Shown here in pieces: positions 2,942 through 35,142 of a DNA stretch of 35,142 nt. The position numbers and the translations under genes were made by a program. Numbering within the stretch: the first letter of the stretch is position 1; every line of letters begins with the position of its first letter. The stretch lies in sequence record SRR22947727_395; one strand, written 5' to 3'. Under the pieces are notes generated by a model. It did not search any database and was not told the DNA's origin. It saw only the letters and a program-made list of their open reading frames with translations.

Positions 2942-3030
2942 AATCCATTCTCTTAAATCTTCGTCGTTAATGTGGCTATATGAATAGCTTGCGTATTTTA
3001 TTTCACCACAGGAACCGACCTGATGGAGTT

Positions 3031-3062
3031 CTCTCACCGACACTTGATCAGGCCAGTGAGAG
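3031..3062 (-). other. Intergenic stem-loop after the aldehyde dehydrogenase gene (stabiliser or weak terminator)
   Basis: Minus strand reads CTCTCACTGGC...GTCGGTGAGAG, an 11-bp stem with G-U pairs. There is no U-tract. Confidence 0.35.
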
Positions 3063-3071
3063 GCTCAGCGC

Positions 3072-4502: not shown

Positions 4503-4589
4503 CTCAAATCCCCTTTTCATTTTTTTAGATTAGTCAATGTTCTGGGCTAGTTTTGTAGTCCCGTTTTGTTTATTTGTAAAAAAGTTCTG

Positions 4590-6113
4590 TCAAGCGTCTA
4601 GCTTCTTTAACTCTCTGCGCATTACCTTGCCAGTACTGGTTTTGGGTAAGTCATCGACAAACTGCACAGCTCTAGGCACCTTGTAAGCTGCCAAATGCTC
4701 ACGGCAATAGGCAATAATGCTATCGCTATCAGGACTAACACCGGTTTTGGGTACAATATAGGCCTTAGCCAGTTCGCCTTTAGTTTCATCGGCAATACTA
4801 CCCACCGCCACCAGAGCTACATCAGGATGACCGGCTACCACTCGCTCGATCTCTGCGGGATACACATTAAAGCCAGCGGTGAGAATCATGTCTTTTTTGC
4901 GATCCACAATAAAGATACAGCCATCTTCGTCGATGGAAGCCAAGTCCCCTGTATGCAGCCAACCATCTGGCTCAATGGTCTCTCTGGTTGCCTTCTCGTT
5001 ACCATAGTATTCCTGCATAACGATGCCGCCCTTGATCATTAGTTCACCCACTTCACCCACAGGCATAGTGGTGCTGGCATCCTCAGTATCGGCAATGCGA
5101 GCCTCTGTATAGGGCAAGGCAATACCAATAGAACCGTGCTTGACCAGACCGTTGGAAGCGAATGTTGATCCCAATCCACCAATTTCGGTCATTCCCCAAA
5201 GCTCAATCAATGGGCAACCGAATCTCTGCTCAACTTCTACCATTTTCGGCGTGGGCATCGTCTGACCACCAACCGTACAGCAGCGCAGTGATGACAGGTC
5301 ATAGTTATCAAAGTCTGGATGGTTGAGCATAAACATGTACATGGTCGGCACACCCTCGAAAAGCGTGGCACCGTGATCCTGGATACTCTGCATGATAGCT
5401 TTCTCTTCGAAAGCGGGATGCAGTACCAAAGTCATGCCGTTTTGAATTGCGCCGCTCATAACAACATTGCCGTAAACATGTGGACAGGGTAATGCGGTGA
5501 CCACCGTATCTCGCTCGTTGCGCTGATGCATTAGGGCGGTCATGGCTATGTTCAGCAAAATGCTTCGATGGGATAGGCAAGCGCCCTTGGGAAAACCGGT
5601 AGTTCCAGAGGTGTAGCAAATAGTAGAGCGGGAATCAGTATCAATATCGCCGATACTGAAATCATCACTGCTATTAGCCAGTATTTCATTAAAGGACAGC
5701 AGTCCTGCAGGAAGAGCTTCATCACCAAAGACGATAATCTCTTTTACCTCAGATTTGTCTTTCACTCCCTGAAGAGGTAATGCTTTTTCATGAGAGGCTA
5801 TAATGACTGAGGCGCCACAGTCGCTGGCAACAAATTCAACTTCCGCTGGCGTGAGCATGACATTAATCGGGTTGATCACCGCACCCATTTTAAGGGCACC
5901 GTAATAGCTAACCACCCACTCCCAACAGTTCCCTGAATACAGGGTTACCCGATCGCCAGACTTTACACCAAGACCTTCCAGCGCATTGGCACAGCGATTT
6001 GTAAGCGCTTCCAGCTCGTTGTAGGAAAGAGACCGATCCGGCAAGATGAGTGCTGTCTTATTCCCAAAGCGTTTCGATGCCTCGAGTGGGATACTACCAA
6101 TTGAACTAAGCAT
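4590..6113 (-). CDS. AMP-forming acyl-CoA synthetase (fatty/aryl acid-CoA ligase family)
   Basis: YTSGTTGFPKG P-loop, WGMTE, GWLHTGD, VDRKKDMI and LPKTSTGK. AAGGAG RBS present. Confidence 0.95.
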   Translation of the reverse strand: MLSSIGSIPLEASKRFGNKTALILPDRSLSYNELEALTNRCANALEGLGVKSGDRVTLYSGNCWEWVVSYYGALKMGAVINPINVMLTPAEVEFVASDCGASVIIASHEKALPLQGVKDKSEVKEIIVFGDEALPAGLLSFNEILANSSDDFSIGDIDTDSRSTICYTSGTTGFPKGACLSHRSILLNIAMTALMHQRNERDTVVTALPCPHVYGNVVMSGAIQNGMTLVLHPAFEEKAIMQSIQDHGATLFEGVPTMYMFMLNHPDFDNYDLSSLRCCTVGGQTMPTPKMVEVEQRFGCPLIELWGMTEIGGLGSTFASNGLVKHGSIGIALPYTEARIADTEDASTTMPVGEVGELMIKGGIVMQEYYGNEKATRETIEPDGWLHTGDLASIDEDGCIFIVDRKKDMILTAGFNVYPAEIERVVAGHPDVALVAVGSIADETKGELAKAYIVPKTGVSPDSDSIIAYCREHLAAYKVPRAVQFVDDLPKTSTGKVMRRELKKLDA

Positions 6114-6194
6114 GGTGCCAACTCCTTATTTTTTTATCCACTTGTGACGCACTTATAGTGCGCCTTGATAAAGCGGTTTATCTGTTTTCTATTC

Positions 6195-6941
6195 TCAGTC
6201 CTTCGCCTTTTTGAACTCAAAGGCCATGGCAATAATAGCCACGACCAGCAATACAGAGGCCCCTAGAAAAGAACCCTCTATATCCACCGAGCCTATTTCT
6301 CCCGCCCATAATGCCAACAGCGTTAATTGATAAATAACACCGAACAGGCCCAGAGAGACAGCGGCAATTTTTGTTGCCGTGGACGAGCTATACAATGGTA
6401 TTACTACAAGTAGTGCAAACAATGAGTACAGCCAGAAGCCTAAATAATCAAAAGAGGTGTACAGGGAAAAAGGTATGGATACATTCAAAATTCTCAACAG
6501 TGGATCGGCCAGCTCGCTCCCTACTGCGCCAGTTGAAATTGTGTTTGCAAGTAAAGGGATAGTCCACACGGCAATAAATTTGGGGATGATAAATGCCATT
6601 ACAGACATCAGCACCACCATGGCAGCAATGATGGCTCGCAATGGATTAGCACTGCCTATCCGCCAAGCAATAGCGAAAAACACCCCTGATAGACTCAGCA
6701 TAGCGACAATTTGATTTGCCCAGGCAGCAATAAATAGTTCTCTATTATTAATGAGCCAAGCCACCCGATCCGCGTGTTCCGCGTTATAACCGCCCGGTGC
6801 GTCCAGAGGGAGATAAACAGAAATGACGGCCGTCACAATGACAATAACGGCAGACCATAGGCCCAGCCTATTAATTTTTTCGTCCAGTGAAGTAAAAATA
6901 TCGATGATTGTCTCCCCATTGATTTCAAAGATTGTTTGCAT
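6195..6941 (-). CDS. Hypothetical integral membrane protein (about 6-7 TM helices)
   Basis: Multiple long hydrophobic segments. First gene of the leftward operon below the 7022 operator. Confidence 0.75.
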   Translation of the reverse strand: MQTIFEINGETIIDIFTSLDEKINRLGLWSAVIVIVTAVISVYLPLDAPGGYNAEHADRVAWLINNRELFIAAWANQIVAMLSLSGVFFAIAWRIGSANPLRAIIAAMVVLMSVMAFIIPKFIAVWTIPLLANTISTGAVGSELADPLLRILNVSIPFSLYTSFDYLGFWLYSLFALLVVIPLYSSSTATKIAAVSLGLFGVIYQLTLLALWAGEIGSVDIEGSFLGASVLLVVAIIAMAFEFKKAKD

Positions 6942-7013
6942 TGCCTACGGAAACGGCATCTTGACGATTATGCCAAGGGCTGTCGTACAACTGTAGAAAG
7001 CGTCTAAGCGGCT

Positions 7014-7042
7014 ATGCTAAAACATGTCTAGTGACATGTAAA
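7014..7042 (-). promoter_or_regulatory. Predicted sigma70 promoter containing perfect operator ACATGTC-TAGT-GACATGT (7022-7039)
   Basis: Minus strand reads TTTACA (7042-7037), 17 nt, TAGCAT (7019-7014). The palindrome fills the spacer. Confidence 0.75.
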
Positions 7043-11119: not shown

Positions 11120-13339
11120 TTAGAAGTTCATTCCAACCTTTATACCAGCCCAGCGCGGCATACCCATATTGCCATACACAAAGTCGAGATCCGCTATTCC
11201 GTAGGTGTTGTCAATGTATTCTGTCTCGAAGACATTTTTAACATAGGCTTGCACTTCCCATTTCTCTGAGGCTGACACCCAGAATACCCGCGCATTGACT
11301 AGCGTTTTGGCCTCGCTGTAGTTATATTCATTACCTCCAGCGCCGACACCTTCACTATGGTAAGAAAAGTCGGTTTGCAACGTAACCACAGCGCCATCAT
11401 TTAAAGGAATATTGTAGCTAACCACACCATTAACCATTAAGTCAGGTGATCCAAGCTCTGAACCATCTAGAGTGCGTTCAACACCGTCTGAGGATGTGAT
11501 GACATAGCCTGAATCGGCGCTGATTTCGCTATCCAACCAGCCTATACCCAAGCTCAACTCCAAATTATCTGTTGGCACTGCGAGTAGCTCAAGTTCTACA
11601 CCATAGATATCCGCATCACCAAGACTGATCAAGCGACTGACTGGTGCTGCCGCGTTTGAGTCATAGGTAATGCCCTGCTTATCGGAAACATCCTGATAAA
11701 ACAGTGCCGCATTTAACTGCAGTCGTCCGTCCATTAGTGTGGACTTGCTACCCAGTTCAAACGCAGTTACTTCCTCTGGATCCACTGACGTCATTGCGCT
11801 CAGATCACCAAACAACAAGTCACTGTTGAAATTTCCTGAACGGAAGCCGGTGGACAGGCTAGCATAAATCATCATCTCATCGCGGGGACGCCACTCTAGC
11901 CCCAGTTTACCGGAGAGGTTTTCACTGGTAAGACGATCTGCGCCCGGAAGCCCCTGCGTGGTGAGCTGCACTTTCTTTTCTTCGTCGGTATAACGAAAAC
12001 CAGCCAGCATACTCAGCGTATCGCTTAAAGAGCGGTTAATTTCACCAAACAGCGCATAGGACTTGGTATCGATGTTAGCCATCGTGTCCGGGTTACCGTC
12101 CCCCCATTCATATCCTGCCACACCAGAGGTGGAGCTCCTATCATCATCTAGATAAAACAAACCAATCAGCCAGTTCCTACCTTCATCGCCACCAGATAAA
12201 TGAAACTCTTGTGAAAATTGATCAGCGTCTACTGTGTAGGTATCGTTGTACTGGTATAAGCCGAACATTCCAACTGCGGTGCCATCTTCATCAGCATTGA
12301 AATAACGATCTAGACTATCCAAGGCACTGATTGAAACAAGCTCCATATCGTTATTTAACTGCCAGGTTAGCTTGGCTATTACCGTCTCAGTTTCCAGGGT
12401 ATATCGACCATCGCCCGCACTCGGATCATGCTCAGTATAGGGTTTAGTCACGTCGGGGTTAGGATCGCTAAATTCTGTCAGTCCGAATAGTGCACCACCA
12501 CCAACACATTGGCTGGCTAAGACACGCTTCGCGTCACATACTTCATATGTCTGTGGATCTAGAAGACCCCAGTAGTTAAACGCCTTACCAATATCATCTG
12601 CATCACTGGCTTCCAATGAAAGCAAAAGATTCATGTCATCATTGATATCAATATCCAAATGAGCACGGCCCATTATTCTATCGGTAACGCCCAACTTACC
12701 GCCTGCGGGACCCTGATTGTCTTGGAAGCCATCATCTTGATGATACTTTAACGCCAAGCGGCCACGCACCTGATCACTTATTGGTCCACTAATGGCAGTT
12801 TCAACAATATTGGTGCCATATGAACCATACTCAAAATTGAGATAGCCTTCTTGTTCTTCAGTAGGTTTGCGGGAGATAAAATGCACCAGTCCAGCGGTGG
12901 AATTACGCCCAAATAATGTGCCTTGCGGTCCACGCAAAACCTCGGCACGTTCCAAATCCATCATCACACCACCGCCAAAGAAGGCAGCGGGTCGATACAC
13001 TTCATCAAAATACAAAGCAACGTTATCCTCTCCCGCAAGTGTGGGGTTTAATGTTGAGTTGCCGCGTATGGTGATGTCCGCAGAAAATGAACCCTCGTTA
13101 GAGGAGACATTGGGTATTTGCGAAAAAATATCTCGCGTATCCTCAAAACCAAAGGCATCAATCTTATCGCCACTCAAGGCAGTCATAGAGACGGAGATAT
13201 CTTGCAGACTCTGCGTCCGTTTTGTTGCCGTCACTAGGATTTCTTCAATACCATTGAAGCTTTCTTCTGCGGTAGCTGGAACGTTCACAGCCAATAGCGC
13301 AGCAAAAACTCCCGTCAGAGCCAATTTATTGTTAGTCAT
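11120..13339 (-). CDS. TonB-dependent receptor 1
   Basis: Signal peptide, TonB box IEEILVTATKR, plug motif ERAEVLRGPQGTLFGRN and C-terminal Phe. GAGGGG RBS before ATG 13339. Confidence 0.95.
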   Translation of the reverse strand: MTNNKLALTGVFAALLAVNVPATAEESFNGIEEILVTATKRTQSLQDISVSMTALSGDKIDAFGFEDTRDIFSQIPNVSSNEGSFSADITIRGNSTLNPTLAGEDNVALYFDEVYRPAAFFGGGVMMDLERAEVLRGPQGTLFGRNSTAGLVHFISRKPTEEQEGYLNFEYGSYGTNIVETAISGPISDQVRGRLALKYHQDDGFQDNQGPAGGKLGVTDRIMGRAHLDIDINDDMNLLLSLEASDADDIGKAFNYWGLLDPQTYEVCDAKRVLASQCVGGGALFGLTEFSDPNPDVTKPYTEHDPSAGDGRYTLETETVIAKLTWQLNNDMELVSISALDSLDRYFNADEDGTAVGMFGLYQYNDTYTVDADQFSQEFHLSGGDEGRNWLIGLFYLDDDRSSTSGVAGYEWGDGNPDTMANIDTKSYALFGEINRSLSDTLSMLAGFRYTDEEKKVQLTTQGLPGADRLTSENLSGKLGLEWRPRDEMMIYASLSTGFRSGNFNSDLLFGDLSAMTSVDPEEVTAFELGSKSTLMDGRLQLNAALFYQDVSDKQGITYDSNAAAPVSRLISLGDADIYGVELELLAVPTDNLELSLGIGWLDSEISADSGYVITSSDGVERTLDGSELGSPDLMVNGVVSYNIPLNDGAVVTLQTDFSYHSEGVGAGGNEYNYSEAKTLVNARVFWVSASEKWEVQAYVKNVFETEYIDNTYGIADLDFVYGNMGMPRWAGIKVGMNF

Positions 13340-13398
13340 AGATTTCCCCTCATAATCTAAAATTTTGATTGCTATAGTAAGCACAGTCCAAATACGCG

Positions 13399-13450
13399 AG
13401 CCTATTCAAAGCACTCCGACATGTCAAATGACATATGTCACGTGACATGC
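13399..13450 (-). promoter_or_regulatory. Sigma70 promoter of TBDR1 with two overlapping operators (13419-13436 and 13433-13450)
   Basis: Minus strand reads TTGACA (13427-13422), 17 nt, TAGGCT (13404-13399). Operators are ACATGTC-AAAT-GACATAT and ATATGTC-ACGT-GACATGC. Confidence 0.8.
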
Positions 13451-13791: not shown

Positions 13792-16059
13792 CTAGTTGAA
13801 GTTATAGTTAAAAGTCAACCCGACAGTTCGTGGTTGATTTATCGCCACGGCCCTAGTATTGGGCAGATTTACCGATGTATTTGAGCCGAACAACCCAGAC
13901 TCGGAGACGTCATTAAGAACATTGTGTGCGAATAATGTAATCTCCCAAAGATCCTCCTGGAAAGCTCCAACCCGCAAATCAAGCCGCTTATTCGGAGAAA
14001 CACTATTAAAAGGGCTTGTCGGATCGTAGAGGCGCGTGACCTCATCCACAAAATTGTAGCTGACTCGCACAAATCCATCCCAATCGGACGTTAGCGATAG
14101 TAAATAATCTGCAGTTACAGAATATGCCCACTCAGGTACGTTGAGCAGAGGAGCGCCCACATACCCTTGTGCCCCCGGGGCGAGCGAGGTCAACTTTGCA
14201 TCCGTGTAACTAACCATCGCTGATAAAGAAAGCGCCTCGGTAGCTGCAAAGTTCCACTCGACTTCAGCTCCTTTGACCTCTGCGTCACCGTTATTAACGG
14301 AGAAAGGCCAACCGCAAAATAGCGAAACGCTCTGCTGAATGTCCGTCCAGTCTAGAAAATAAACCGCACCGTTTAATCTCATCCGTTGATCCATCATCCG
14401 CATTTTGGCACCCAGTTCGTAACTCGAAACTGAATCGGATCCCACGCCCTTAGGAGTTTCAGACAGACCCAGTGCTGCCAAATCATCCGCACAAGCCGCC
14501 TCAGGGACTGGTGAGATTGCCGCACCACTTCTGAATCCCTCCGCCACCGTTGCGAACAGCATTGTGTCATCGTTCATTTGATACGAAACATTAAGCTTAG
14601 GTGTAATATCATCATCCTTATATTCGCCCTCTTGGTATACGGGCTCGTTGGACCCAGTGAATAACCCCACCTCGGCATCTGTAAAACTTGACTCGAATTC
14701 AAAGGCACGCAGGCCAACAGTAACCGCAAGGGCATTGGTCACGTTATATGTAGCTTCTGCAAAAATAGCCTTTTCCGTAAGTTTGTAACGCGGGTCTGAT
14801 TCATATGAGGTATCAAAACCGAATATCTGCCCTTCTTCCCCAAAGAGCTCAAGGGCTTCAGCACTGTACGGATTGATATCTGGGAGATGCCTCTTTTGAT
14901 CGCTGTAGTAAATACCGACTAGGTAGTCCAGTGAATCCTTCGAACCCACCAAACGTAATTCCTGAATAAACGTTTCGGTTTTGTTATCATCAAGCTGCTC
15001 CCATGGCACGTTGGTGGGTAGTTCAAGCAGCGCCGTAGCGATTTTAGTATAATCTTCAATTCCGGGGGTCTCGCGTTTGAAGTAGGAGGTAGACGACGTC
15101 ACCCCCAATAGATCACGCTCCCAGTTCACTGTCAGATTTGCAATAGTCACCTCGTCCTCGCGGTCCTCGCGAGTTAAGCGTGTCTGAATATATTTCTTAT
15201 CTTCTAGAGATCCTGGCGGCACATCAATCAGGTACGGTGCGTCGACCTCAAGCTTCTGATGCATTAGCGATGGCGTAATCGTCAGGTTTTCATTGGGAAC
15301 ATACTCGAGAATCGCTCGGAATCCGTTCTGTGTCATCGAGTTCGCACCAGGTTTTACAGGAACTGTAGGATCAATTCCTGCCAAATCTGATGGATGAATT
15401 GCGTAGCGGTCGATGAAACCTTTGTCAGATTGATGGGATCCAAGCAAACGTAAACCAAGCTTTTCGTCCTGTAGGGGGATATTGAGAACGACATTAGCTT
15501 TTCGGCTCAGTCCGCTACTACCATCGATATGCGACAGGGTAGTCTCTGCGCGGCCCTCAAATTGGGACAAATTCGGCCTTTTCCCAACATACTTAACAGT
15601 ACCACCCATTGAACCGGCGCCATACAGCGTGCCTTGTGGCCCTCGCAAAACCTCAACCCGCTCCAGATCGAACATCATCACATCGAGATTGCGAGTAGTG
15701 GAGGATATTGGCACTTCATCGAGGTAGTAGCCGATGGTGGGCGAATTACCAGACCTTCCTGGCATGCCTCGGACAATCACTTCCGTCTGCCCGGGTCCAG
15801 TGCTTGTTACTGCAAGACCCGGCACGCCGAGAGCAAGATCCGAGACATTCTTAATTCCCGCATGCTCTAGATCTTCCCCGGATACCGCAGTGATACTAAT
15901 CGGGACTTTTTGTAAAATCTGAGAGCGTTTCCGTGCTGTGACAATGATTTCTTCCAGTGTATTGTTGAGAATTTTTTGTCCCGCCTCTTCTTTTGCAGAA
16001 ACATCTGCAGCAATCAGCGCGGCAAAAATACCGAGCAAACTCAATCTATTCTTTTTCAT
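13792..16059 (-). CDS. TonB-dependent receptor 2
   Basis: Signal peptide, LEEIIVTARKR TonB box, ERVEVLRGPQGTLYGAGSMGG plug and PRTVGLTFNYNF terminus. AAGGGG RBS present. Confidence 0.95.
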   Translation of the reverse strand: MKKNRLSLLGIFAALIAADVSAKEEAGQKILNNTLEEIIVTARKRSQILQKVPISITAVSGEDLEHAGIKNVSDLALGVPGLAVTSTGPGQTEVIVRGMPGRSGNSPTIGYYLDEVPISSTTRNLDVMMFDLERVEVLRGPQGTLYGAGSMGGTVKYVGKRPNLSQFEGRAETTLSHIDGSSGLSRKANVVLNIPLQDEKLGLRLLGSHQSDKGFIDRYAIHPSDLAGIDPTVPVKPGANSMTQNGFRAILEYVPNENLTITPSLMHQKLEVDAPYLIDVPPGSLEDKKYIQTRLTREDREDEVTIANLTVNWERDLLGVTSSTSYFKRETPGIEDYTKIATALLELPTNVPWEQLDDNKTETFIQELRLVGSKDSLDYLVGIYYSDQKRHLPDINPYSAEALELFGEEGQIFGFDTSYESDPRYKLTEKAIFAEATYNVTNALAVTVGLRAFEFESSFTDAEVGLFTGSNEPVYQEGEYKDDDITPKLNVSYQMNDDTMLFATVAEGFRSGAAISPVPEAACADDLAALGLSETPKGVGSDSVSSYELGAKMRMMDQRMRLNGAVYFLDWTDIQQSVSLFCGWPFSVNNGDAEVKGAEVEWNFAATEALSLSAMVSYTDAKLTSLAPGAQGYVGAPLLNVPEWAYSVTADYLLSLTSDWDGFVRVSYNFVDEVTRLYDPTSPFNSVSPNKRLDLRVGAFQEDLWEITLFAHNVLNDVSESGLFGSNTSVNLPNTRAVAINQPRTVGLTFNYNFN

Positions 16060-16111: not shown

Positions 16112-16233
16112 GCTTGTCATATGACTGTTTAGCGTGTCAAGTGACATGTATGCTAGGTAAGACTAAGCAGATCTGTGAGACAGTGAAAACTCAAGGGGGG
16201 GGCGAACCAACACTAACATGTCAATTGACATTC
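16112..16233. promoter_or_regulatory. Three operator copies in the divergent TBDR2 / ldi-like intergenic region
   Basis: GCTTGTC-ATAT-GACTGTT (16112-16129, degenerate), GCGTGTC-AAGT-GACATGT (16132-16149) and ACATGTC-AATT-GACATTC (16216-16233). Confidence 0.7.
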
Positions 16234-16285: not shown

Positions 16286-17947
16286 ATGACAAGTAAATAC
16301 CGCTTTATTATTCCTTTCCTAGTTGGATTAAAGGTCCTCTCTGTAACCGCGGCAGAGCCATTGGTTATTCCTGACCCGACAAATTACCCATCCCTCTCCA
16401 CTAAGAAGATGGGCCATGTTCGTCATATGGTTAATCTGGCAAACCAACTTGATGGCGATTTCTCGCTGATGGGTGAGACCGATCCCGTCTACAATATGAG
16501 TTTCCATGCCTACCAGTTTCAAATTGCGTTTGCTCAATATGCACTGGCGTCTACCCACTACCACTATACGCCCGCCCACCGTGATCTCTATCAGAAAGCA
16601 TCGGCAAGGCTGATTCAGAGGATGATCTACAAAGATGTGTGGGATTATTGGGCACATGTTAGTAAGTTCGATCTAACGGATAGAACTGGAAGTGAGAGTG
16701 GTGAAGAGAGGATGATCAACTATACCGAAGATGACTGGTACGGTTGGATCGATCCCAATATTAAGAAGAACATTATGTATAGCGGCCATCTTTTGCAAAT
16801 GGTGGGTCTGCATCAGAACCTTTTCAACGACAACCGCTACGATGAGCCCGGCTCTCTTACATTTCGTTACGCACCGATTGAGTATGGTCAAGGTCCTGTC
16901 GAAATGAAATACGATTATCATCGATTGGCCAAGGTTATCTACGATCAATTTGTCGAAGATCATTACCGCGGAATTGAGTGTGAGCGCAATGCGGTCTACG
17001 CGGAGTGTAACCAACATCCCATTCTTGGCCTTATGTCTTATGACTTCAAGAATGGTACAAACCTTTCGGTAGACGTCCGCAAAGAATTCAAGAAAGTTAT
17101 GCGCAAGCGCAAATATATTGACCCTAAAACCAACACCACGATGTACTTCTTGAAAGTGAACGAGGACGAGGTTGTCCCCGCGACCTATGCTTGGGCTGAT
17201 GGTTGGAATGGTCATGCCCAACATGTATGGGACAAGGAATATATCGAGAGCATTTATCCCGACCAGAAAAAACGCTACATCCCATCGATGCTTAGAGGGT
17301 GGCCCTTCGAGAACATGGGCTGGACTGCATCATTCGACTTTGGTTGGTTCGCCCTGCTAGCGTCCGAGGTTGGTGATACAGAAACTGTGCAGACAATGAC
17401 TGACTATGCGGATGCGCACTTCGAGCCGACCTGGAGAGATGGGGGCTACTATTACCCGAATACTACCTATTATCAGTATAACTTCCGCCGGGACTGGAAA
17501 GGGTTTATCCATAACGTCGGCCCTGCGACGGGTAACGTTCTAGTTGGCTTTGCCCGCATCAATCCGAAAGACGGACTGTGGCAGATCTATAATCGCCCTT
17601 GGGATGATACCCACTATTCGCAACCCTACATTACCAACGTCGAATATTTGCAAGCGAGTGTCACCCAGGCGGTCTATGACCCAGAGGAGGACGCTCTGAT
17701 TGTCACTTTGGTGCCTGGGCCAGTGGCTAGTGCATCCACCTCCTTTACCGTGCATCAATTGGATCATGATAAGAGCTATGCATTGATCAGGGATGGGCAA
17801 GTGTTGGGCGAAGTCAATGCGCAAACAGGTTCGGCTCTACCAAATACTCAGTGGCAGGCTGATGGCTCTCTTCTTATCAGTACTGAATTAGCAGAGCCAC
17901 AGTCTTTTGTATTGAAGGCAATGGCGGCCACGCTAGCTGCACGCTAA
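16286..17947 (+). CDS. Secreted linalool dehydratase/isomerase (LinD/Ldi)-family protein with C-terminal beta-rich extension
   Basis: Blocks QFQIAFAQYALAS, RMIYKDVWDYW, DPNIKKNIMYSGHL, IECERNAVYAECN and LLASEVGD are colinear with recalled Castellaniella LinD blocks KYSIAFYAYGLAS, KMKCKRVWGDW, DPIEKENIMYKGHL, VCEPDNYFVQCN and LLAREMGD. Confidence 0.82.
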   Translation: MTSKYRFIIPFLVGLKVLSVTAAEPLVIPDPTNYPSLSTKKMGHVRHMVNLANQLDGDFSLMGETDPVYNMSFHAYQFQIAFAQYALASTHYHYTPAHRDLYQKASARLIQRMIYKDVWDYWAHVSKFDLTDRTGSESGEERMINYTEDDWYGWIDPNIKKNIMYSGHLLQMVGLHQNLFNDNRYDEPGSLTFRYAPIEYGQGPVEMKYDYHRLAKVIYDQFVEDHYRGIECERNAVYAECNQHPILGLMSYDFKNGTNLSVDVRKEFKKVMRKRKYIDPKTNTTMYFLKVNEDEVVPATYAWADGWNGHAQHVWDKEYIESIYPDQKKRYIPSMLRGWPFENMGWTASFDFGWFALLASEVGDTETVQTMTDYADAHFEPTWRDGGYYYPNTTYYQYNFRRDWKGFIHNVGPATGNVLVGFARINPKDGLWQIYNRPWDDTHYSQPYITNVEYLQASVTQAVYDPEEDALIVTLVPGPVASASTSFTVHQLDHDKSYALIRDGQVLGEVNAQTGSALPNTQWQADGSLLISTELAEPQSFVLKAMAATLAAR

Positions 17948-18771
17948 TGAGGGTAACTCGAGACAAAACTGCCGGCGAACGAGTCGCGAAACATCTGCGT
18001 AGAATCGCGCAAACTGTGTTTGTCCTTGCATTTGGATTAGCTATAACCGCATGCTCAGATACTGACAGGGCAAATACCTTGAGCGAAGGGATTACCAACA
18101 AGAAGGTACGTCAGTACCTTCTGGAGCACCCGGAACTTGTTCTTGATGATCCAGAAATTGCCCGCGCCATAAGTTCAGCCCGCTCAGCGCGGCAGCAGCA
18201 GGCTAGCGCCTTATGGCGCAAATCTATCCTTGCAGAAAACGCCAGCCTACTAGACTCCACTCTCACCCCAGTCTCTGGGGATGTTGGATCCCAAGTCACG
18301 ATTATCGAGTTCTATGATTATCAATGTATGCCTTGCAAGGCCAGTTACCCAGAACTTGAACAGATCAAAAAAACAGAGGCAGATATTCGTATTGTTTATG
18401 CCCAGCTGCCTGTTTTCGGGAGCTATTCGATCCTAGCTGCACGGGCCGCTATCGGCGCTCACCGGCAGGGCCTGTTTCAGGCTTATCACGATGCATTAAT
18501 GACTACCGATATCCGTCTTGATGCGGACTCTATTTTTGCCATGGCAGCCGATATAGGGCTCGACACTGAAAGGTTACAGGCTGATATGCGTGATCCACAA
18601 GTTATTCACTATTTAGAGCAGATGCGGCTTCTCGCCGATGAACTTGATGTGACCGGCACGCCAGCATTTGTAATAGGAGATGCCATTCTGCTAGGGGGCA
18701 CTAGGGTAAACGAACTTAAAGCAGTGCTCGACCAACAGCGTAGTCGAAGCCATCAGTCCAGTGGAGGTTGA
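17947..18771 (+). CDS. DsbA-family thioredoxin-fold lipoprotein (ScsC/Com1-like)
   Basis: Lipobox-like ITAC, VRQYLLEHPELV helical N-domain, EFYDYQCMPCK active site and GTPAF cis-Pro loop. Its ATG overlaps the upstream stop (TAATG 17945-17949). Confidence 0.9.
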   Translation: MRVTRDKTAGERVAKHLRRIAQTVFVLAFGLAITACSDTDRANTLSEGITNKKVRQYLLEHPELVLDDPEIARAISSARSARQQQASALWRKSILAENASLLDSTLTPVSGDVGSQVTIIEFYDYQCMPCKASYPELEQIKKTEADIRIVYAQLPVFGSYSILAARAAIGAHRQGLFQAYHDALMTTDIRLDADSIFAMAADIGLDTERLQADMRDPQVIHYLEQMRLLADELDVTGTPAFVIGDAILLGGTRVNELKAVLDQQRSRSHQSSGG

Positions 18772-18914: not shown

Positions 18915-20015
18915 ATGAAAATTCAAGCTGCAGTAGTCCGCGAACAATCAGGGCCCTTTGACGTATCCGAACTGGATCTGGCTGAACCTAAAGACGATGA
19001 GGTATTGGTTAAGATCGTTGGCGTAGGTATATGCCACACTGATCTTGTTTGCCGCGATCAGTATTTTCCGGTGCCTTTGCCCTGTGTTTTTGGTCACGAG
19101 GGTAGCGGCATTATCGAGAAAGTAGGCCGCCAGGTCGTCGGCTTTGAGAAAGGTGATCATGTTGCGGTTTCATATAAAACATGTGGTAGCTGCGAACCCT
19201 GTTTGCAGGGACAAATTGGTTATTGTCATGGCCTCTATGAGCACAACTTTAACGGCACCCGGCCTGACGGCAGTAGTGCCCTGAGTGAGAATGGTGAGAC
19301 CGTGCACGGGCATTTCTTTGCCCAGAGTTCCTTTGCCTCCCACGCCCTCTGTCATGCTTCAAATCTGGTTAAGGTCGATCACAGTCTACCCCTAGAACTA
19401 CTCGGCCCACTGGGCTGTGGAATACAGACGGGCGCTGGGGCAGTAATGAATGCCCTTAAACCACAGGCGGGCACATCTATTGCGATTTTCGGCGCCGGTA
19501 CGGTTGGTCTAAGTGCTGTGATGGCTGCTCATATCGTAGGTTGCGGCACTATCATAGCGATCGATCTGAAGGATGATCGGTTGGCTACAGCAACTGAACT
19601 GGGTGCAACACATACAATCAATGCCAGTGATAACGATGTAGTCACCAAAATTCATGAAATAACTGGTTCAGGTACCCATTTCTCTCTCGAATGTACGGGT
19701 ATACCCCAGGTTGCACGTCAGGCTGTAGATTGCCTGACACTAACCGGTGTTTGTGGCGTTATGGGCGTGTCGCCAGCCGGTACCGAATTCAATCTGGATA
19801 TGAACTCGGTACTCTTCGGTCGCTCGGTGCGCGGCATTATTGAAGGCGACAGTGTGCCTAGAGTTTTTATACCGCGGCTGATTGACCTGTACCAGCAGGG
19901 TCGATTCCCTTTCGATAAATTGATCAGCACCTATTCGTTTGCCGACATCAACCAGGCGGTTGAGGACGTTGAATCTGGAAAAGTTATCAAGCCGGTACTC
20001 CTAATGGACGCATGA
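18915..20015 (+). CDS. Zn-dependent aryl/allylic alcohol dehydrogenase (XylB/AreB/GeoA group)
   Basis: CHTDLVCRDQ, GHEGSG, structural Zn CGSCEPC...C, LLGPLGCGIQTGAGAV, GAGTVG and FPFDKLI; 366 aa. AGGAG RBS present. Confidence 0.92.
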   Translation: MKIQAAVVREQSGPFDVSELDLAEPKDDEVLVKIVGVGICHTDLVCRDQYFPVPLPCVFGHEGSGIIEKVGRQVVGFEKGDHVAVSYKTCGSCEPCLQGQIGYCHGLYEHNFNGTRPDGSSALSENGETVHGHFFAQSSFASHALCHASNLVKVDHSLPLELLGPLGCGIQTGAGAVMNALKPQAGTSIAIFGAGTVGLSAVMAAHIVGCGTIIAIDLKDDRLATATELGATHTINASDNDVVTKIHEITGSGTHFSLECTGIPQVARQAVDCLTLTGVCGVMGVSPAGTEFNLDMNSVLFGRSVRGIIEGDSVPRVFIPRLIDLYQQGRFPFDKLISTYSFADINQAVEDVESGKVIKPVLLMDA

Positions 20016-22375: not shown

Positions 22376-23011
22376 CTAAGTCAATTTTCGGTCAGCTGTA
22401 ACGCCGCGAGACTTAATATTGGCAGCCAGGCGCAAAATAAGTGCCAGCAAGCCCAAGACAGCAAAGACAACATCTATTGTCTTTGCATTTTGACTTAGGG
22501 CCTGCTCGGTATAACTCACCCAGATCGCCGCCCAGAAGTACCAGATACCTACCCAATGCAGCCAACTCCATTGGGCGCGACTTAATTTTCGACGCATTGG
22601 ATAAAATGAAGTAACGGTTAGTGCCAATAAAAGGACATAGCTAAGGCTTCGCCCCACAAGATCGCTGGTCTTATGCAACTCATCCCAGTAATAGGCGGGG
22701 TATAAATCCAGTAGCACTGCGATAAAGACCGCCTGCCAGGCAAATCCAGCTGCAAAGGATAAACCGGTATAACGGCGGTTTCTTAACAACCACTGTGAAA
22801 TAGCACCTGGAAAAAGCGTTACCAGGGCTGATGTCACAAAGGCGATAAGTATCCAGGGAGAGGCAAACTGCACAGATAGACGTATCAATTTGACTGTGGC
22901 TTCAGGCGAGGAGATACCTATGATCAGCATCCCGGCAACCATGCCGCCAAGGGTCAACAGCGCAATCAGGTAAAAAAGCGGCCAACCATTCAATACCCTG
23001 TATTGGAGCAA
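22376..23011 (-). CDS. Ferric-reductase-like / MsrQ(YedZ)-like transmembrane protein
   Basis: Six hydrophobic helices with NRRYTGLSF, LALTVTS and WSWLHWVGIWY motifs typical of this domain. TTG start is 2 nt after the upstream stop. Confidence 0.7.
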   Translation of the reverse strand: MLQYRVLNGWPLFYLIALLTLGGMVAGMLIIGISSPEATVKLIRLSVQFASPWILIAFVTSALVTLFPGAISQWLLRNRRYTGLSFAAGFAWQAVFIAVLLDLYPAYYWDELHKTSDLVGRSLSYVLLLALTVTSFYPMRRKLSRAQWSWLHWVGIWYFWAAIWVSYTEQALSQNAKTIDVVFAVLGLLALILRLAANIKSRGVTADRKLT

Positions 23012-23013
23012 GG

Positions 23014-24885
23014 TCAGCTGACTACCTCCCCCACAGCACGAATCGACGCATCAATCGCCGACTGCACATAGGCATAGGCCTCGGAGTCAGAATTGGCAAT
23101 GCTGATTCGGCCAAAGGGCTGTCGTCCAAGCTCGTGAGGTGCCTGCCCTGGTTCCCAACGCGGGTCATGAAGATCCATATATTCATAGGCATAGCCATGG
23201 GACCAACGATTAATGGTAATGGCCTCAATATCCCTATCAGCATCAAAACCGGCCTCACCAAACATACCGGTAAGCTGATGTCGAATTTCTCGCTCATAGT
23301 CAGCAAATGAGGTGGCCATTATTTTGTGCCTGCCAAGCCGACAGAGATCGCGCCCAGATTGTTTACCATCACCCTCTGGTGCAGGCATATGCAGCATATA
23401 CATCACCATGGGGTCGTTCGGTTTGGTTGAAACCTGGTAAGCCCCCAAATTCACGGGCGGTGCGTGGGTGACCAACTCAAAAAAGGTATCAGCACAGACA
23501 TAGAGGGATGCACCACTTTTTCGCACGGGCGCACTGGTTTTAAGCACCACATTGGCACTGATAAAAGGAACTTTGGAACCATAGGCCAGATTTTGTTTCT
23601 GCGTCTCAGGTAGGTCTGGGCAGAGATGTGGAATCATGCCGTTGTATCCGGCAAGGATGCAATGCCTTCCCTGCACCCTAAAGGCACGATCGCCAGACAC
23701 ATAGGAAATATCGACCAGGTCTGAGCCCCTATTGGCAACATTAACCACCGTGCTATTTAAACGAATGCGCACTGGAGCATCTTGCAAATCCAATTGGGAA
23801 TAATCAAAACGACTGGCAACCAACTCCTCCATTGAATCGGCGCCCGCCACCTGAGGGATAAGTTTATTCACAAATAGTCTTGCCACAGAGGCATTACCAT
23901 CGGGGAAAATAGGTGAGCGGTACGCGTTGGGGTCCTCTGGCACATCAGACTCCCCATCTGATTCTGGGAAGCCCATGGCGTTGGCCCCAGGTGCTCCCAA
24001 CTCGATTGCTTCCATAATTGATGCACTGTTAATACCTACGCCCCATATAGCTCGAACCCAGGGTTCTGTTAATTTGGCGCCCTGCTTGGAGAGGCCAACT
24101 CGTTCATTGAGAAACCTGGCATATGAAGTGCTGCGCATATAGGTTTCTTTATCGGACAGGGGAATATCCGGCAAATAGTCTTTCTCACCACTGACCAGAG
24201 CAATCAGACGGCTAGTATCAGTGTTCGATAAATCCAGTGACTTAATCATCGCTTTATAGTCACCAGCACCCGCCCATGTGGACCCCCAATCACCTGAGAT
24301 AATAGTATCTTTGCCATACAGATTTTTATTCAAATAGATACCATAGGGCGCGGCTGCATTTGACAGCGGATAGTCATCTGGCCCTGCATCTTGCAGTGCT
24401 TTAAAGTCAACACCAATATCTTCAAGAACCTGATAGGCGCCGGCACTAAAAGCAGACTGCTCGAGGTTGAGACTACCGCCAGGACCCAGCAACATTTTGC
24501 CCGAAGACTCAAATTCGTTGCGCTTTGCATGGCCACCGAAATCATCATGGTTATCCAGCACTAGAATCTTTACATCGGGTCCCATTTGCTCCTTGTAGAG
24601 ATAAGCCGCAGACAGACCGCTTATGCCGCCGCCCACAATCACCAGATCATAAAGTTCATCTACTGGCTCATACTGTTCAGGTCTCTGCCCCCCCATAACC
24701 AGTGCGTGAGCTACTTCAAAGGACCCTTTGTGACTTCCGCGCATGCCTGTCAGCAGCGGTGGATAATACTCTGTGCCCTTAGCTGTGGTGCTGAATGCAA
24801 GAGAACTGTAAGGCGCAAGGGCGGTGGCCGCCACAGATAAGGCGGCACCATTTAAAAAATCTCGTCTGGTTATTTTATCTCTCAT
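23014..24885 (-). CDS. Tat-exported FAD oxidoreductase, spermidine dehydrogenase (SpdH)-like, paralog 2
   Basis: ITRRDFLNG Tat signal, YYPP.LTGMRGSH.GSFEVAH, DLVIVGGGISG, NHDDFGGHAKRNEF, FPDGNASVAR, NRWSHGYAY and GRISIANSDS. Confidence 0.88.
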   Translation of the reverse strand: MRDKITRRDFLNGAALSVAATALAPYSSLAFSTTAKGTEYYPPLLTGMRGSHKGSFEVAHALVMGGQRPEQYEPVDELYDLVIVGGGISGLSAAYLYKEQMGPDVKILVLDNHDDFGGHAKRNEFESSGKMLLGPGGSLNLEQSAFSAGAYQVLEDIGVDFKALQDAGPDDYPLSNAAAPYGIYLNKNLYGKDTIISGDWGSTWAGAGDYKAMIKSLDLSNTDTSRLIALVSGEKDYLPDIPLSDKETYMRSTSYARFLNERVGLSKQGAKLTEPWVRAIWGVGINSASIMEAIELGAPGANAMGFPESDGESDVPEDPNAYRSPIFPDGNASVARLFVNKLIPQVAGADSMEELVASRFDYSQLDLQDAPVRIRLNSTVVNVANRGSDLVDISYVSGDRAFRVQGRHCILAGYNGMIPHLCPDLPETQKQNLAYGSKVPFISANVVLKTSAPVRKSGASLYVCADTFFELVTHAPPVNLGAYQVSTKPNDPMVMYMLHMPAPEGDGKQSGRDLCRLGRHKIMATSFADYEREIRHQLTGMFGEAGFDADRDIEAITINRWSHGYAYEYMDLHDPRWEPGQAPHELGRQPFGRISIANSDSEAYAYVQSAIDASIRAVGEVVS

Positions 24886-24891
24886 TAATAA

Positions 24892-25335
24892 TTACTCTTC
24901 GCCTGCTACCCAGGCTTTGGTTTCAATAATAATCATCTCGCGAAACTTAACGGGCATATCCCAGGTTCCCTGCCAACCTTTTGGCACAAGAAAGCTATCT
25001 CCCACATCATAAGTCTGCTTTTCACCAGATAGAGAAGTAAGAATAACCTTGCCTTCCAAGACCGTCACAAACTCATCATAGGCAAACGGATAGCTCACAT
25101 CTATCAGAGCGGCCTCGGACTCATAAAGTGCGACCACAAAATCACCTTTATGCACCACTTTTTGCCAGTGCTCATTGGCGCCTGATAGGACCACCCCTTT
25201 TGGCCAAGGCGGAATAGACTCCAGCTCAGTCATCCTGAAGGCGTCCTTATCTAAGGGCAAAACGTCAATCACGGGTTGCGCCGATATTTGCATCGCAGCC
25301 ATAAATAAGGCTGCTAATAAATAAAATTTTTTCAT
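24892..25335 (-). CDS. Secreted cupin (EutQ-like/DUF861 type), paralog of 8037-8480
   Basis: Signal MKKFYLLAALFMAAMQISA; FAYDEFVTVLEGKVIL and GDSFLVPKGWQGTWDMP. Confidence 0.87.
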   Translation of the reverse strand: MKKFYLLAALFMAAMQISAQPVIDVLPLDKDAFRMTELESIPPWPKGVVLSGANEHWQKVVHKGDFVVALYESEAALIDVSYPFAYDEFVTVLEGKVILTSLSGEKQTYDVGDSFLVPKGWQGTWDMPVKFREMIIIETKAWVAGEE

Positions 25336-25380
25336 TGTTTACTCCATTTTCAGTTTTTGTCAGTGTTTTTATCAATCGGC

Positions 25381-27294
25381 TCAAGAGGGTTTTGCCGTTT
25401 GTTCTTCTACTGCCCGCCAAGCCGCGTCAAAAGCGGCTTGCATTAGGGGCATGGCCTCTGAATCAGAATTGGCAATTGAGATACGTCCAAATTGTGCCCG
25501 GCCAATCTCATGGGGTGCATGCCCCTCATCCCAGTCGGGATCATCAAGCCCCAGATAAGAGTAGGCATAACCATGGGGAATCCGATTAACTGTAATTGCC
25601 GTTATATCAGTCTTGTGATTAAAGCCATACTGACCCAGCATTCCCTGAAGCTGATCGCGAATCTGCTGCTCATAGTCTTTAAATGATGTGCCATAAATCT
25701 TGTAGCGACCCAGCCTAAATAGCTCACGCGCAGGCATATCTTTAATATCTGCTGGCGCAGGTGAGGCCATCATAAAGACAGCCATTGGATCGTCCTCGGT
25801 CTGAGGTGGCTGATAGCCCCCTGATGTTACTGTGGGCGCAGCGCTCACCCATTGAAAAGGATCATAGGGACATTGAGTAAAAGTCGTCTCAAGGCCAGCA
25901 AAGGCTCGACCATTTTTTAGCAGCACATTGGCATAGACAAAGGGCACCTTCACGCCATAGCTCAAACCGTCTTTTTGCTCTTGGCTCATGTCGGGGCAAA
26001 GATGTGGAATAAGCCCGTTATAACAAGCCAGAACACAGTGGTCTGCACTGACGCTAAAGGGCTGGCCTTGCTGAACATAATCGACCTTTACATGGTTTAC
26101 ATCTGTCTCTTTTACCCCTACCACTGTGCTATTGAGTCTCAAACGAGTCGGATTACTGTCAAGGTCCAAAGCTGCGTAGTTAAAGTCCGAAATGGCAACA
26201 TCTTCAAAGCCCTTCATAGCCGGTGCAACATCAGGAATTAACTTATGGACCAATAATCGGGCAACCGACGCATCGCCATCAGGAAACATATAGGCCACGG
26301 GAGCGTCCCCTAAAACAAAAGCGCCGGCGAGATCGCTGAGTCGATTGGTCAGCCAGCCCATAGCTTTTAGACCGGGGCAACCAGTACTCAGGGCTTCCAG
26401 GACTGTAAGGCTCCACCCCGCCGGGCCTAATAAAACACTGGTAAAAGCCCCCAGTATGGGCAAGGTTTCCTCAGCTAAACCAACGCGCTCGGTCAAAAAT
26501 TGGTTGTAACTGACGGACTTCACGTATCTGTATTGCTCCAAGAGAGACAAATCATCGAGGAAGTCTCGATCACCACCGAAAAAGGCAATCAACTTAGTCT
26601 GCTCTTCCTCAGGTATGGGCAACTCTTTAACCGCCGCCTCATATCCTTGACCCCCATGGATAAACCCTAACCAGTTGCCACTTAGGGTTTTATGGCCATC
26701 CGTAGTAGGAATCGTCATACCATTATTGGCGCTAATTTTGCCACCGAGCATATAATCATCAGGCGTATTGGCTGTCATTGCAGCTAGAGCCTGATCGTCA
26801 ATACCTATATCTTTTAATAATTCAACCGCCATTGCGCTATATGACGACATAGGCTCGATATTTTGAGCCCCACCCAAACCAAGTACCATATTCCCATCTT
26901 GATGAAATTCATTGCGCTTTGCATGCCCTCCAAAGTCATCGTGGTTGTCCAACAATAGTATCTTTGCGGTAGGGCCCATTTTCTTTCGGTAATACCAGGC
27001 AGCGGCCAGACCGCTCTGTCCTGCGCCTACAACTATTAGGTCATAGTGCTCATCTAATTCTTCATAACTGGACGGTTTTTGTCCATTCCAAGCTAGTGCA
27101 TGAGCAACCTCATAGGATCCCTCATGACTTCCGCGCATACCGGTCAGAGTCGGGGGATAATAATCACCGGGAGATTTTTTAGCGGCTATCGATCCAGCAG
27201 GTTGCGCGATAAGTTGTCCCGGCATCAAAAGGCTTGCACCGGCACCAATAGCGACACCATTAAGAAAATCCCTTCGCGTTATTTTAGAAGTCAT
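25381..27294 (-). CDS. Tat-exported FAD oxidoreductase, spermidine dehydrogenase (SpdH)-like, paralog 1
   Basis: ITRRDFLNG, YYPPTLTGMRGSHEGSYEVAH, VVGAGQSG, NHDDFGGHAKRNEF, NRIPHGYAY and GRISIANSDS. Confidence 0.88.
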   Translation of the reverse strand: MTSKITRRDFLNGVAIGAGASLLMPGQLIAQPAGSIAAKKSPGDYYPPTLTGMRGSHEGSYEVAHALAWNGQKPSSYEELDEHYDLIVVGAGQSGLAAAWYYRKKMGPTAKILLLDNHDDFGGHAKRNEFHQDGNMVLGLGGAQNIEPMSSYSAMAVELLKDIGIDDQALAAMTANTPDDYMLGGKISANNGMTIPTTDGHKTLSGNWLGFIHGGQGYEAAVKELPIPEEEQTKLIAFFGGDRDFLDDLSLLEQYRYVKSVSYNQFLTERVGLAEETLPILGAFTSVLLGPAGWSLTVLEALSTGCPGLKAMGWLTNRLSDLAGAFVLGDAPVAYMFPDGDASVARLLVHKLIPDVAPAMKGFEDVAISDFNYAALDLDSNPTRLRLNSTVVGVKETDVNHVKVDYVQQGQPFSVSADHCVLACYNGLIPHLCPDMSQEQKDGLSYGVKVPFVYANVLLKNGRAFAGLETTFTQCPYDPFQWVSAAPTVTSGGYQPPQTEDDPMAVFMMASPAPADIKDMPARELFRLGRYKIYGTSFKDYEQQIRDQLQGMLGQYGFNHKTDITAITVNRIPHGYAYSYLGLDDPDWDEGHAPHEIGRAQFGRISIANSDSEAMPLMQAAFDAAWRAVEEQTAKPS

Positions 27295-27353
27295 CTTTTA
27301 CCAGCCCTTATTGTTGGTTTATTAGTGCTCTGCATTTATTTTGCCTTTTTTGC

Positions 27354-27382
27354 ATTACATGTCGAATGACATGTGTTACGTT
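27354..27382 (+). promoter_or_regulatory. Perfect operator ACATGTC-GAAT-GACATGT (27357-27374) between the divergent spdH-like and iorAB-like operons, within a predicted iorA promoter
   Basis: Plus strand reads ATTACA (27354-27359), 17 nt ending TGT, then TACGTT (27377-27382). Confidence 0.78.
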
Positions 27383-33647: not shown

Positions 33648-33665
33648 TGATTAACCCTAAAAAAC

Positions 33666-33697
33666 AAAGGCTGCGATATTGTTTGAACGCAGCCTTT
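33666..33697 (-). terminator. Stem-loop between guaB and guaA (partial terminator or mRNA stabiliser)
   Basis: AAAGGCTGCG-12 nt-CGCAGCCTTT flanked by A/T runs. Confidence 0.5.

Positions 33698-33725: not shown

Positions 33726-35142
<1,417 letters not shown>

Follow-up and report, generated by a model that had tools for sequence, protein, structure and literature searches.

The 35,142-nucleotide stretch of DNA analysed here (sequence record SRR22947727_395; hereafter the window) encodes a protein that belongs to Pfam family Ldi, as does the linalool dehydratase/isomerase LinD of Castellaniella defragrans 65Phen (EC 4.2.1.127 / 5.4.4.4; 5g1u, 5hlr, 5i3t), with which it shares a predicted barrel. 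The gene adjoins that of a thioredoxin-fold partner and lies behind a palindrome that recurs before genes for polyamine-type amine oxidation, an arrangement that suggests a periplasmic LinD-type enzyme at work in amine catabolism. The two genes, the promoter region before them and the parts of the encoded enzyme are placed as follows.

16115..16230, no strand: three operator-like palindromes, (ACA)TGTCA-NN-TGACA(TGT), in the divergent promoter region between a TonB receptor gene and the Ldi gene
16286..17947, plus strand: Ldi-family gene (Pfam PF18566), 553 amino acids, ATG start, stop included in the coordinates
16286..16354, plus strand: putative Sec signal peptide, residues 1-23, with a V-T-A cleavage site inferred by eye
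16385..17617, plus strand: predicted (alpha/alpha)6 barrel, residues 34-444, superposable on LinD
16517..16519, plus strand: F78, where LinD has the Tyr of KYSIAF (profile alignment)
16775..16789, plus strand: M164-Y165-S166-G167-H168, the M-Y-x-G-H motif, equal to LinD M125...H129
16979..17008, plus strand: C232-E233-x7-C241, equal to LinD C171/C180, the sole two cysteines of the protein
17627..17920, plus strand: C-terminal beta-sandwich of predicted strands, residues 448-545, absent from LinD
17947..18771, plus strand: ScsC-like thioredoxin-fold lipoprotein gene, 274 amino acids (Pfam DSBA/Thioredoxin_4)

The match to the Ldi profile is extensive (E 2.6e-79, 267.5 bits against a cut-off of 26.1), running from residue 77 to 392 and covering positions 1-314 of 318, while no NCBIfam model was found for the enzyme. 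LinD entries are its sole solved relatives by sequence, at E ~7e-12 when the protein is searched alone and 3e-34 when a profile of 36 sequences is used. The N-terminus, with its basic residues, hydrophobic core and V-T-A/A-E, resembles a Sec signal peptide, as judged by eye, and a hydrophobic N-terminus opens all homologues in the family alignment. An AlphaFold2 model built with 36 family sequences (mean pLDDT 88.3, pTM 0.89) predicts helices to about residue 436, followed by strands from 448 to 545. Superposed with VIA-align, residues 34-444 of this model match LinD 21-365 with Z 36.1 and an rmsd of 2.5 Å over 327 residues, at 22-23% identity, and Foldseek likewise returns LinD as the top match (E 7e-12, TM 0.70 on the target). 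An earlier note on this DNA, made from the letters alone, had described a divergent secreted LinD homologue; the Ldi profile, the LinD alignments and the barrel fold agree with that description, and the protein is apparently exported. Two checks that the note proposed, a search with the Ldi profile and superposition of a predicted structure on LinD, thus both come out in its favour.

The earlier note had also remarked on insertions and a beta-rich C-terminal extension, and these are borne out by a low-confidence insertion of about 25 residues relative to LinD at ~126-150, and by the predicted strands at 448-545 (an extension of ~100-110 residues). Folded alone with 23 sequences, the C-terminal domain is predicted confidently as a beta-sandwich (pLDDT 88.2). 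A wide structure search found no specific structural relative for this domain alone: its best match reaches Z 7.9 at most, and the highest-ranking proteins are glycoside hydrolases, an endoglycoceramidase and chondroitin AC lyase, each matched through its C-terminal sandwich. Language-model look-alikes (heparinase II C-terminal domain, 0.84; DUF5695, 0.85) fall under the 0.9 trust mark. Going by the models, the domain is a generic accessory sandwich, similar to those that follow the barrel in other (alpha/alpha)6 enzymes. The order of barrel then sandwich is shared with GH105, GH76, GH127 HypBA1 and chondroitin AC lyase, and GH127 also has a catalytic cysteine. As GH105, GH76, GH127 and sugar epimerases form the second tier of structural matches, and a few relatives have GH20 or GH3 genes nearby, the protein might be imagined as carbohydrate-active, or merely carbohydrate-binding, instead of a LinD-like catalyst. 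We regard this as highly improbable: the Z score of 36 to LinD compares with 19.8 at most for any glycosidase (GH105 and GH76 being the next folds), no glycosidase family is matched by sequence, and the catalytic residues conserved family-wide are those of LinD and differ from those of the glycosidases and lyases.

With LinD the enzyme shares the active-site Met and His, both Cys, the Glu that follows the first Cys, and an N-terminal export signal. In single-sequence and profile alignments NIMYSGHL pairs with LinD NIMYKGHL, and the C-E-x7-C region, GIECERNAVYAECN, pairs with LinD GIVCEPDNYFVQCN; the two elements which the earlier note had seen as intact are therefore both aligned to LinD, and the cysteine codons start exactly where it placed them, at 16979 and 17006. 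Among 267 family proteins (denominators being the rows with a residue in the column concerned), C232 is Cys in 214/219 and C241 in 216/217, M164 is Met in 200/210, E233 is Glu in 209/219, and H168 is His in 184/210 and Tyr in 18. The motif residues are also conserved in 72/72 related loci (one genome per species), a count that is partly circular because NIMYSGH and CNQHP were the peptides used to find these loci. Key residues given for LinD are H128, Y44, D38, C179 and C170 in 5HLR numbering (PMC12455561), and mutant structures of LinD M125, C171 and C180 are present in the PDB by title (6t9h, 6tfr, 6tft, 6thm). Through their alignment with LinD C171/C180, the two cysteines would be placed in the barrel pocket.

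Beyond this set, divergence from LinD is considerable, with identity at ~22%. The translation holds two cysteines where LinD has four, two of which, according to a 2018 review, form an essential disulfide capping the substrate channel (PMC6013536); the absence of the structural-disulfide cysteines had been correctly reported. QFQIAF likewise stands where LinD has KYSIAF, and the Tyr-to-Phe change is real in the profile alignment, but it appears to be a clade trait and not an oddity, since of the 198 family proteins with a residue here, 103 have Tyr and 89 have Phe. Where LinD has S, V, S, V and T, the family conserves the polar residues Q79, E231, Q243, H244 and D305; should these face the pocket, the substrate would be more polar than linalool. 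The insertion, the C-terminal sandwich, the dedicated partner gene, and a putative polyamine-catabolic regulon in place of a monoterpene island are further differences. Because the capping disulfide is lacking, the protein should not be filed as a LinD orthologue. A second point of comparison is the linalool isomerase Lis of Thauera linaloolentis 47Lol, which is distantly related to LinD (20% identity). At more than 500 residues, Lis too has parts beyond the barrel, and its activity depends on a reductant; its catalytic domain, however, is cytosolic, and its N-terminus has four transmembrane helices but no signal peptide (PMC4791888). Compared with the published description of Lis, the present protein is predicted to be exported and soluble, and its extension is C-terminal.

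The dedicated thioredoxin-fold partner, which the earlier note had passed over, is the most distinctive feature of this locus. The stop codon of the enzyme gene and the start codon of the partner gene overlap by 1 nt (TAATG), and the partner carries a lipobox (ITAC, with Cys36), a long helical segment and C127-M-P-C130. Both C127-x-P-C130 and T238-P239, the cis-Pro loop, are conserved among partners, with CxPC invariant in 22/22. The best solved matches are a '27 kDa outer membrane protein' (3gyk, 1.2e-33), CcScsC (7rgv, 1.2e-28), PmScsC (4xvw, 1.9e-18) and Salmonella ScsC (4gxz), and the CcScsC match spans partner residues 51-267 on 12-219, including the N-terminal helical stem, such that the nearest solved relatives of studied function are the ScsC isomerases. 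The partner resembles ScsC (CcScsC 7rgv; PmScsC 4xvw/5id4) in its DsbA-like fold, long N-terminal helix, CxxC and cis-Pro loop, and differs in being a predicted lipoprotein with an invariant CxPC, encoded beside an Ldi-family gene and not in an scsABCD copper-tolerance locus, with no DsbD/ScsB-like domain among the 25 window proteins scanned. ScsC proteins are described as disulfide isomerases that depend on ScsB to maintain their active-site cysteines in the reduced state, and CcScsC as a trimer formed through its N-terminal helix (PMC8900818).

This pairing is not confined to the window. A 22-partner profile finds a match directly downstream, on the same strand, in 33/72 loci, comprising, among loci with downstream DNA, all 24 of the window's own clade (clade A) and all nine of clade B, a second gammaproteobacterial clade at 36-43% identity. 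Another 12 loci, every one alpha- or betaproteobacterial, have different same-strand genes flanking that of the enzyme: a redoxin/TlpA-like gene (CAPC or CGPC), an SCO1/SenC-like gene (CxxxC) or, in 10 of the 12, both. Overall, a thioredoxin-fold neighbour is present in 45/72 loci; five others end at the enzyme gene, and in the remaining 22 none was found with these queries, although L059 has a DSBA-domain open reading frame (ORF) on the opposite strand. A quick maximum-likelihood tree implies no fewer than two gains or losses for each partner label, and one of its clades, with 17 rows, is without any partner. The CAPC motif is common to the DsbA/ScsC-like partners and the unrelated redoxin/TlpA-like partners of other clades, and may reflect convergence on one redox property. 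Complex prediction with the mature enzyme and mature partner scored 0.00, giving no verdict and counting as evidence neither way.

In the simplest reading, the partner would keep both catalytic cysteines reduced in the periplasm. LinD requires a reductant for activity according to the 2018 review (PMC6013536), as does Lis (PMC4791888), and the recurrent thioredoxin-fold partner offers a testable explanation for this need in both; co-expression of the partner is thus suggested as a route to active enzyme. The same evidence might be taken to indicate a thiol-redox enzyme, in which C232/C241 cycle between dithiol and disulfide at each turnover with the thioredoxin-fold neighbour as electron donor, and which could reduce or detoxify a reactive compound released when polyamines are oxidised in the periplasm, for instance acrolein, an enal that derives from 3-aminopropanal. 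That three unrelated thioredoxin-fold families (ScsC-like, TlpA/redoxin-like and SCO1-like) adjoin the gene, with repeated gain or loss of each, and that the Cys pair is the best-conserved feature, would both fit such chemistry. However, the same cysteines of LinD are described as having acid/base or covalent roles with no net redox (PMC6013536), repair of adventitious oxidation by the partner explains the pairing equally well, and the scan of window proteins that revealed no DsbD/ScsB-like domain leaves such an enzyme without a visible electron source. On balance we consider thiol-redox catalysis doubtful.

A copper site is a further way to account for these neighbours. Cys2-His-Met is a typical copper ligand set, and Met, His and both Cys could bind the metal with the ScsC-, SCO1- and TlpA-like proteins acting as metallochaperones or site reductants, as in CuA assembly. 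The SCO1-like and TlpA-like genes that jointly flank the enzyme gene in 10 loci would suit this role, and CcScsC is described as binding Cu(I) with sub-picomolar affinity (PMC8900818). Against this, LinD is described as having no associated cofactor (PMC6013536), and no other copper-related genes or motifs were seen, which leaves the copper site very unlikely. A broader proposition, which we advance tentatively and as a minority possibility, is that the wider Ldi family, far from being a group of stand-alone terpene hydratases, supplies one of two components of a periplasmic system. The other component, a dedicated thioredoxin-fold protein of ScsC-, TlpA- or SCO1-like type, would service a Cys-Cys-His-Met site in the barrel, and the system would here perform a step of polyamine catabolism unknown until now; a candidate for that step is thiol- or copper-dependent conversion of the reactive C3 aminoaldehyde or enal products of cleavage by spermidine dehydrogenase (SpdH)-type enzymes. 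If true, marine Porticoccaceae and Halieaceae would widely possess this system, as would Acidobacteriota of the soil.

Returning to LinD-type catalysis with the partner in a protective role, the setting of the enzyme is best approached through the DNA that precedes it. An 18-bp palindrome, ACATGTCA-NN-TGACATGT, the flanks of which extend a core of TGTCA-NN-TGACA, occurs nine times in the window when one mismatch to the core is allowed, against 1.17 copies expected, and none of 100 shuffles reached nine. By the ORF map, intergenic DNA amounts to 3029 of 35142 bases (8.6%), yet eight of the nine copies are intergenic, and the remaining one spans the position called as the start of the permease gene. 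The genes and operons behind these sites, together with others that bear on the substrate, are listed here.

327..1328, plus strand: acetylpolyamine amidohydrolase homologue, HDAC-like, full length (PDB 6phr 2.8e-131, 3q9b 3.8e-128)
2015..7036, minus strand: putative co-regulated operon of membrane protein, CoA ligase, aldehyde dehydrogenase and esterase (Pfam/NCBIfam; operator 7025)
11120..13447, minus strand: TonB-dependent receptor 1 (Pfam; operator copies 13422 and 13436 upstream)
13792..16059, minus strand: TonB-dependent receptor 2, divergent from the Ldi gene (Pfam Plug and TonB_dep_Rec_b-barrel)
18915..20015, plus strand: Zn-dependent alcohol dehydrogenase (ADH) of the benzyl-alcohol-dehydrogenase type (Pfam; PDB 5tnx 3.5e-124, 1f8f 7.6e-113)
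22376..27371, minus strand: putative co-regulated operon of FAD637, FAD623, a periplasmic cupin and a membrane protein (operator 27360)

Sites 16115, 16135 and 16219 precede both TonB receptor 2 and the operon of Ldi, partner and ADH genes; site 7025 precedes the operon that contains CoA ligase and aldehyde dehydrogenase (ALDH); 7860 a TetR gene (TetR1) and a cupin gene; 13422 and 13436 receptor 1; 21528 belongs to the permease; and 27360 to the divergent SpdH-homologue and Mo-hydroxylase operons. An exact copy also stands just upstream of the Ldi gene in eight of the related loci (L002, L003, L004, L005, L007, L009, L018, L048). The palindrome thus appears to mark at least six promoter regions and to define a regulon, which is probably controlled by two near-identical TetR paralogues (7254-7814 and 21708-22268). 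To our minds this shared operator is the strongest evidence that the enzyme may act in the same pathway as the polyamine enzymes.

Those enzymes are well represented in the island. FAD623 (23014-24885, minus strand) is a full-length homologue of SpdH (7d9i, E 1e-136), a match that ruled out its identity as a carotenoid-type desaturase, and FAD637 (25381-27294, minus strand) is its paralogue, placed by clustering only; both carry twin-arginine signals (RRDFL motifs). SpdH is described as an FAD/heme b enzyme that converts spermidine to 1,3-diaminopropane and 1-pyrroline (PMC12564564). With the acetylpolyamine amidohydrolase homologue, and the operator that they share with the Ldi operon, the SpdH homologues show that the 'amine-oxidation context' of the earlier note was correct. 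The island also includes a PQQ dehydrogenase (CxxCH), three cupins (two with signal peptides), an APC-family permease, an aldehyde dehydrogenase, two acyl-CoA ligases, an esterase, an IorAB-like Mo-hydroxylase and the two paralogous TetR regulators, and Tat or Sec signals are found on the SpdH homologues, cupins, PQQ dehydrogenase and Mo-hydroxylase. Lenient Pfam scans of three unannotated island proteins returned nothing useful.

Neighbours of related genes were counted within flanks of 6 kb or less across the 72 loci, and the counts are therefore lower bounds. Zn-ADH, CoA ligase and TonB receptor genes each occur in at least 21 of these loci, the CoA ligase homologues being 44-81% identical, and PQQ dehydrogenase genes in at least 15. 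Cupins are present in at least 11, ALDH and SpdH homologues each in at least 10, other amine-oxidase-like flavoproteins in at least nine, sarcosine/glycine-oxidase-like DAO proteins in at least eight and acetylpolyamine amidohydrolases in at least five; among the 'amine oxidase' neighbours, cluster c10 has FAD-motif matches only and may instead comprise carotenoid-type desaturases. In clade B a same-strand array begins with the genes for a receptor, an SpdH homologue and a PQQ quinohemoprotein, continues with Ldi and its partner, and ends with amine-oxidase-like, CoA ligase and cupin genes. The sphingomonad array consists instead, in order, of Zn-ADH, CoA ligase, ALDH, redoxin, Ldi, receptor and SCO1 genes, with no amine enzyme in the flanks. 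A dehydrogenase of the same broad allyl- or benzyl-alcohol type and a CoA ligase also stand at LinD's own locus: in C. defragrans, LDI, the allyl-alcohol dehydrogenase GeoA and the CoA ligase GeoC are reported to lie within eight genes (PMC4109377; PMC3490891). Given the benzyl-type ADH here, and GeoA and GeoC beside LDI there, the enzyme seems, like LinD, to feed a funnel from alcohol to acid to CoA ester.

These parallels bear on whether the substrate might be a terpenoid or isoprenoid alkenol (myrcene, linalool, geraniol or a longer isoprenoid alcohol), with the amine genes merely sharing the island. LinD is the sole characterised structural relative, its catalytic set is intact, the ADH is of benzyl/allyl-alcohol type, and the trio of ADH, ALDH and CoA ligase recurs, constitutes the whole context in sphingomonad loci and is found at LinD's own locus. 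Nonetheless, the shared operator joins the Ldi operon to the SpdH-like, permease and receptor genes, the one-strand array of clade B places an SpdH homologue, PQQ dehydrogenase and amine oxidase-like gene with Ldi, partner and CoA ligase, and Pfam/NCBIfam scans of the window revealed no genes for acyclic terpene utilisation. Low identity to LinD (~22%), loss of the disulfide and the polar family-specific residues count against this reading as well, and we judge a terpenoid enzyme to be unlikely.

Taken together, we put the probability at about one half that this protein is a periplasmic, cofactor-free LinD-type hydro-lyase or isomerase in a catabolic regulon for polyamine-type amines, with the partner keeping its cysteines reduced. 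Under this proposal, the TonB receptors and permease would import a polyamine-type compound, which the two SpdH-like dehydrogenases and the acetylpolyamine amidohydrolase would degrade, such that an unsaturated intermediate arises in the periplasm. Reduced C232/C241 and H168 would then serve as acid/base groups, with no cofactor, and a heteroatom (that of water, or perhaps of ammonia or an amine) would be gained or lost at a position allylic or beta in the intermediate; the reaction, of LinD type, could be a hydration, a dehydration or an allylic shift, and the leaving group might be an amine. Oxidation of the Cys pair in the oxidising periplasm would be repaired by the translationally coupled, ScsC-like CxPC lipoprotein, and the alcohol or aldehyde product would pass to the benzyl/allyl-alcohol-type dehydrogenase, aldehyde dehydrogenase and CoA ligase. 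As the ADH, ALDH and CoA ligase mirror the LinD locus, alcohol-forming chemistry of LinD type is at least as likely as the C-N cleavage that the earlier note had raised.

Several considerations weigh against this proposal. LinD is a cyclic homopentamer with its active site at the subunit interface, where D39 is contributed by the neighbouring subunit. A PDB sequence search with the N-terminal 96 residues gave no LinD match by which to place equivalents of D39 and Y45; the structural alignment does span this segment (model 34 onward on LinD 21 onward), which includes a conserved D-G-D at 56-58 and M62. The polar Q79, E231, Q243, H244 and D305 imply that the pocket may differ from that of LinD beyond the shared catalytic set, and linalyl amine is not accepted by LinD, as stated in the review (PMC6013536). 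That a TetR protein binds the palindrome is something we infer. Retrieval by NIMYSGH and CNQHP biases the 72 loci toward members that keep the motifs, and since the alpha- and betaproteobacterial flanks are without amine-type flavoenzymes, the amine link may be limited to two clades. Expression has some support from four metatranscriptome runs (three studies), whose contigs match the genes of receptor, Ldi, partner and ADH with identities of at least 95%, one 623-nt contig bridging the junction of Ldi and partner genes and two bridging the gap between partner and ADH, but RNA libraries can contain DNA and such contigs do not prove a single transcript, so this support is weak.

The subfamily itself is large. 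A word-indexed search returned 174 proteins, among which all 120 in the matches listed contain PF18566, most being 510-600 amino acids long and hence with the extension present, and an exhaustive search returned 660 representatives at E <=0.001, 332 at 1e-10 and 93 at 1e-30. The few named members are 'hypothetical protein' or 'linalool dehydratase/isomerase domain-containing protein', and we found no paper on this enzyme subfamily in the full-text literature, coverage of which excluded subscription journals and patents. The 2018 review counts only one other enzyme with sequence similarity to LinD at that time (PMC6013536). Members among the 72 loci come from Porticoccaceae, Halieaceae, Woeseia, Acidobacteriota, Myxococcota, sphingomonads, Caulobacteraceae, Comamonadaceae, Hydrogenedentota, Sumerlaeota and Desulfomonilia, and the window gene is 95% identical to that of a Porticoccaceae assembly (L007). 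Cultured carriers include Luminiphilus sp. nBUS_07 (L005), Pseudohalioglobus sediminis NY5 (L018), Sphingomonas colocasiae JCM 31229 (L028) and Sphingobium phenoxybenzoativorans SC_3 (L045). LinD is prized for alkene and alcohol biocatalysis, and because this subfamily is large, spans many phyla and retains the catalytic set alongside more polar conserved residues, it constitutes a source of possibly new substrate scope. Coupling to the partner, the palindrome regulon, and the recurring ADH and CoA ligase beside the gene are new here. More broadly, the operator-defined regulon would place the enzyme in the polyamine degradation of marine bacteria that are abundant and in which the route taken by polyamine carbon has been traced only in part.

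Other details of the island and of related loci complete the description. The cupin with a signal peptide sits between FAD623 and FAD637, and the multi-pass membrane protein that follows them (22376-23011) is without known family and is a possible electron acceptor for both. The PQQ-propeller dehydrogenase (9057-11018, minus strand) has a heme c motif, CASCH, near its N-terminus, and the quinohemoprotein beside the Ldi gene in clade B has a cytochrome c domain at its C-terminus. Two subunits of the Mo-hydroxylase (27439-30221), one with 2Fe-2S and the other a molybdopterin subunit with a Tat signal, are encoded divergently from the SpdH-homologue operon behind the shared operator; IorAB-like Mo-hydroxylases oxidise aldehydes or cyclic imines. 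The housekeeping genes guaA and guaB (32070-35084) form the right-hand edge of the catabolic island.

One Desulfomonilia assembly holds at least five family paralogues (L067:3783-9574; L058, L060, L066), including a tandem pair after a neutral/alkaline ceramidase-like gene and another after an amine-oxidase gene. Loci L008 and L017 lie ~15 kb apart on the same Myxococcota contig, where the whole ten-gene neighbourhood is present twice with identical Ldi proteins, due to either recent duplication or assembly artefact. Contigs of all four RNA-library runs leave the window at 15985 with the same loose sequence, and in the 95%-identical L007 (326-2774) the Ldi gene abuts the orthologue of receptor 1 and not that of receptor 2, for which reasons receptor 2 (13792-16059) looks like a strain-specific insertion or swap.

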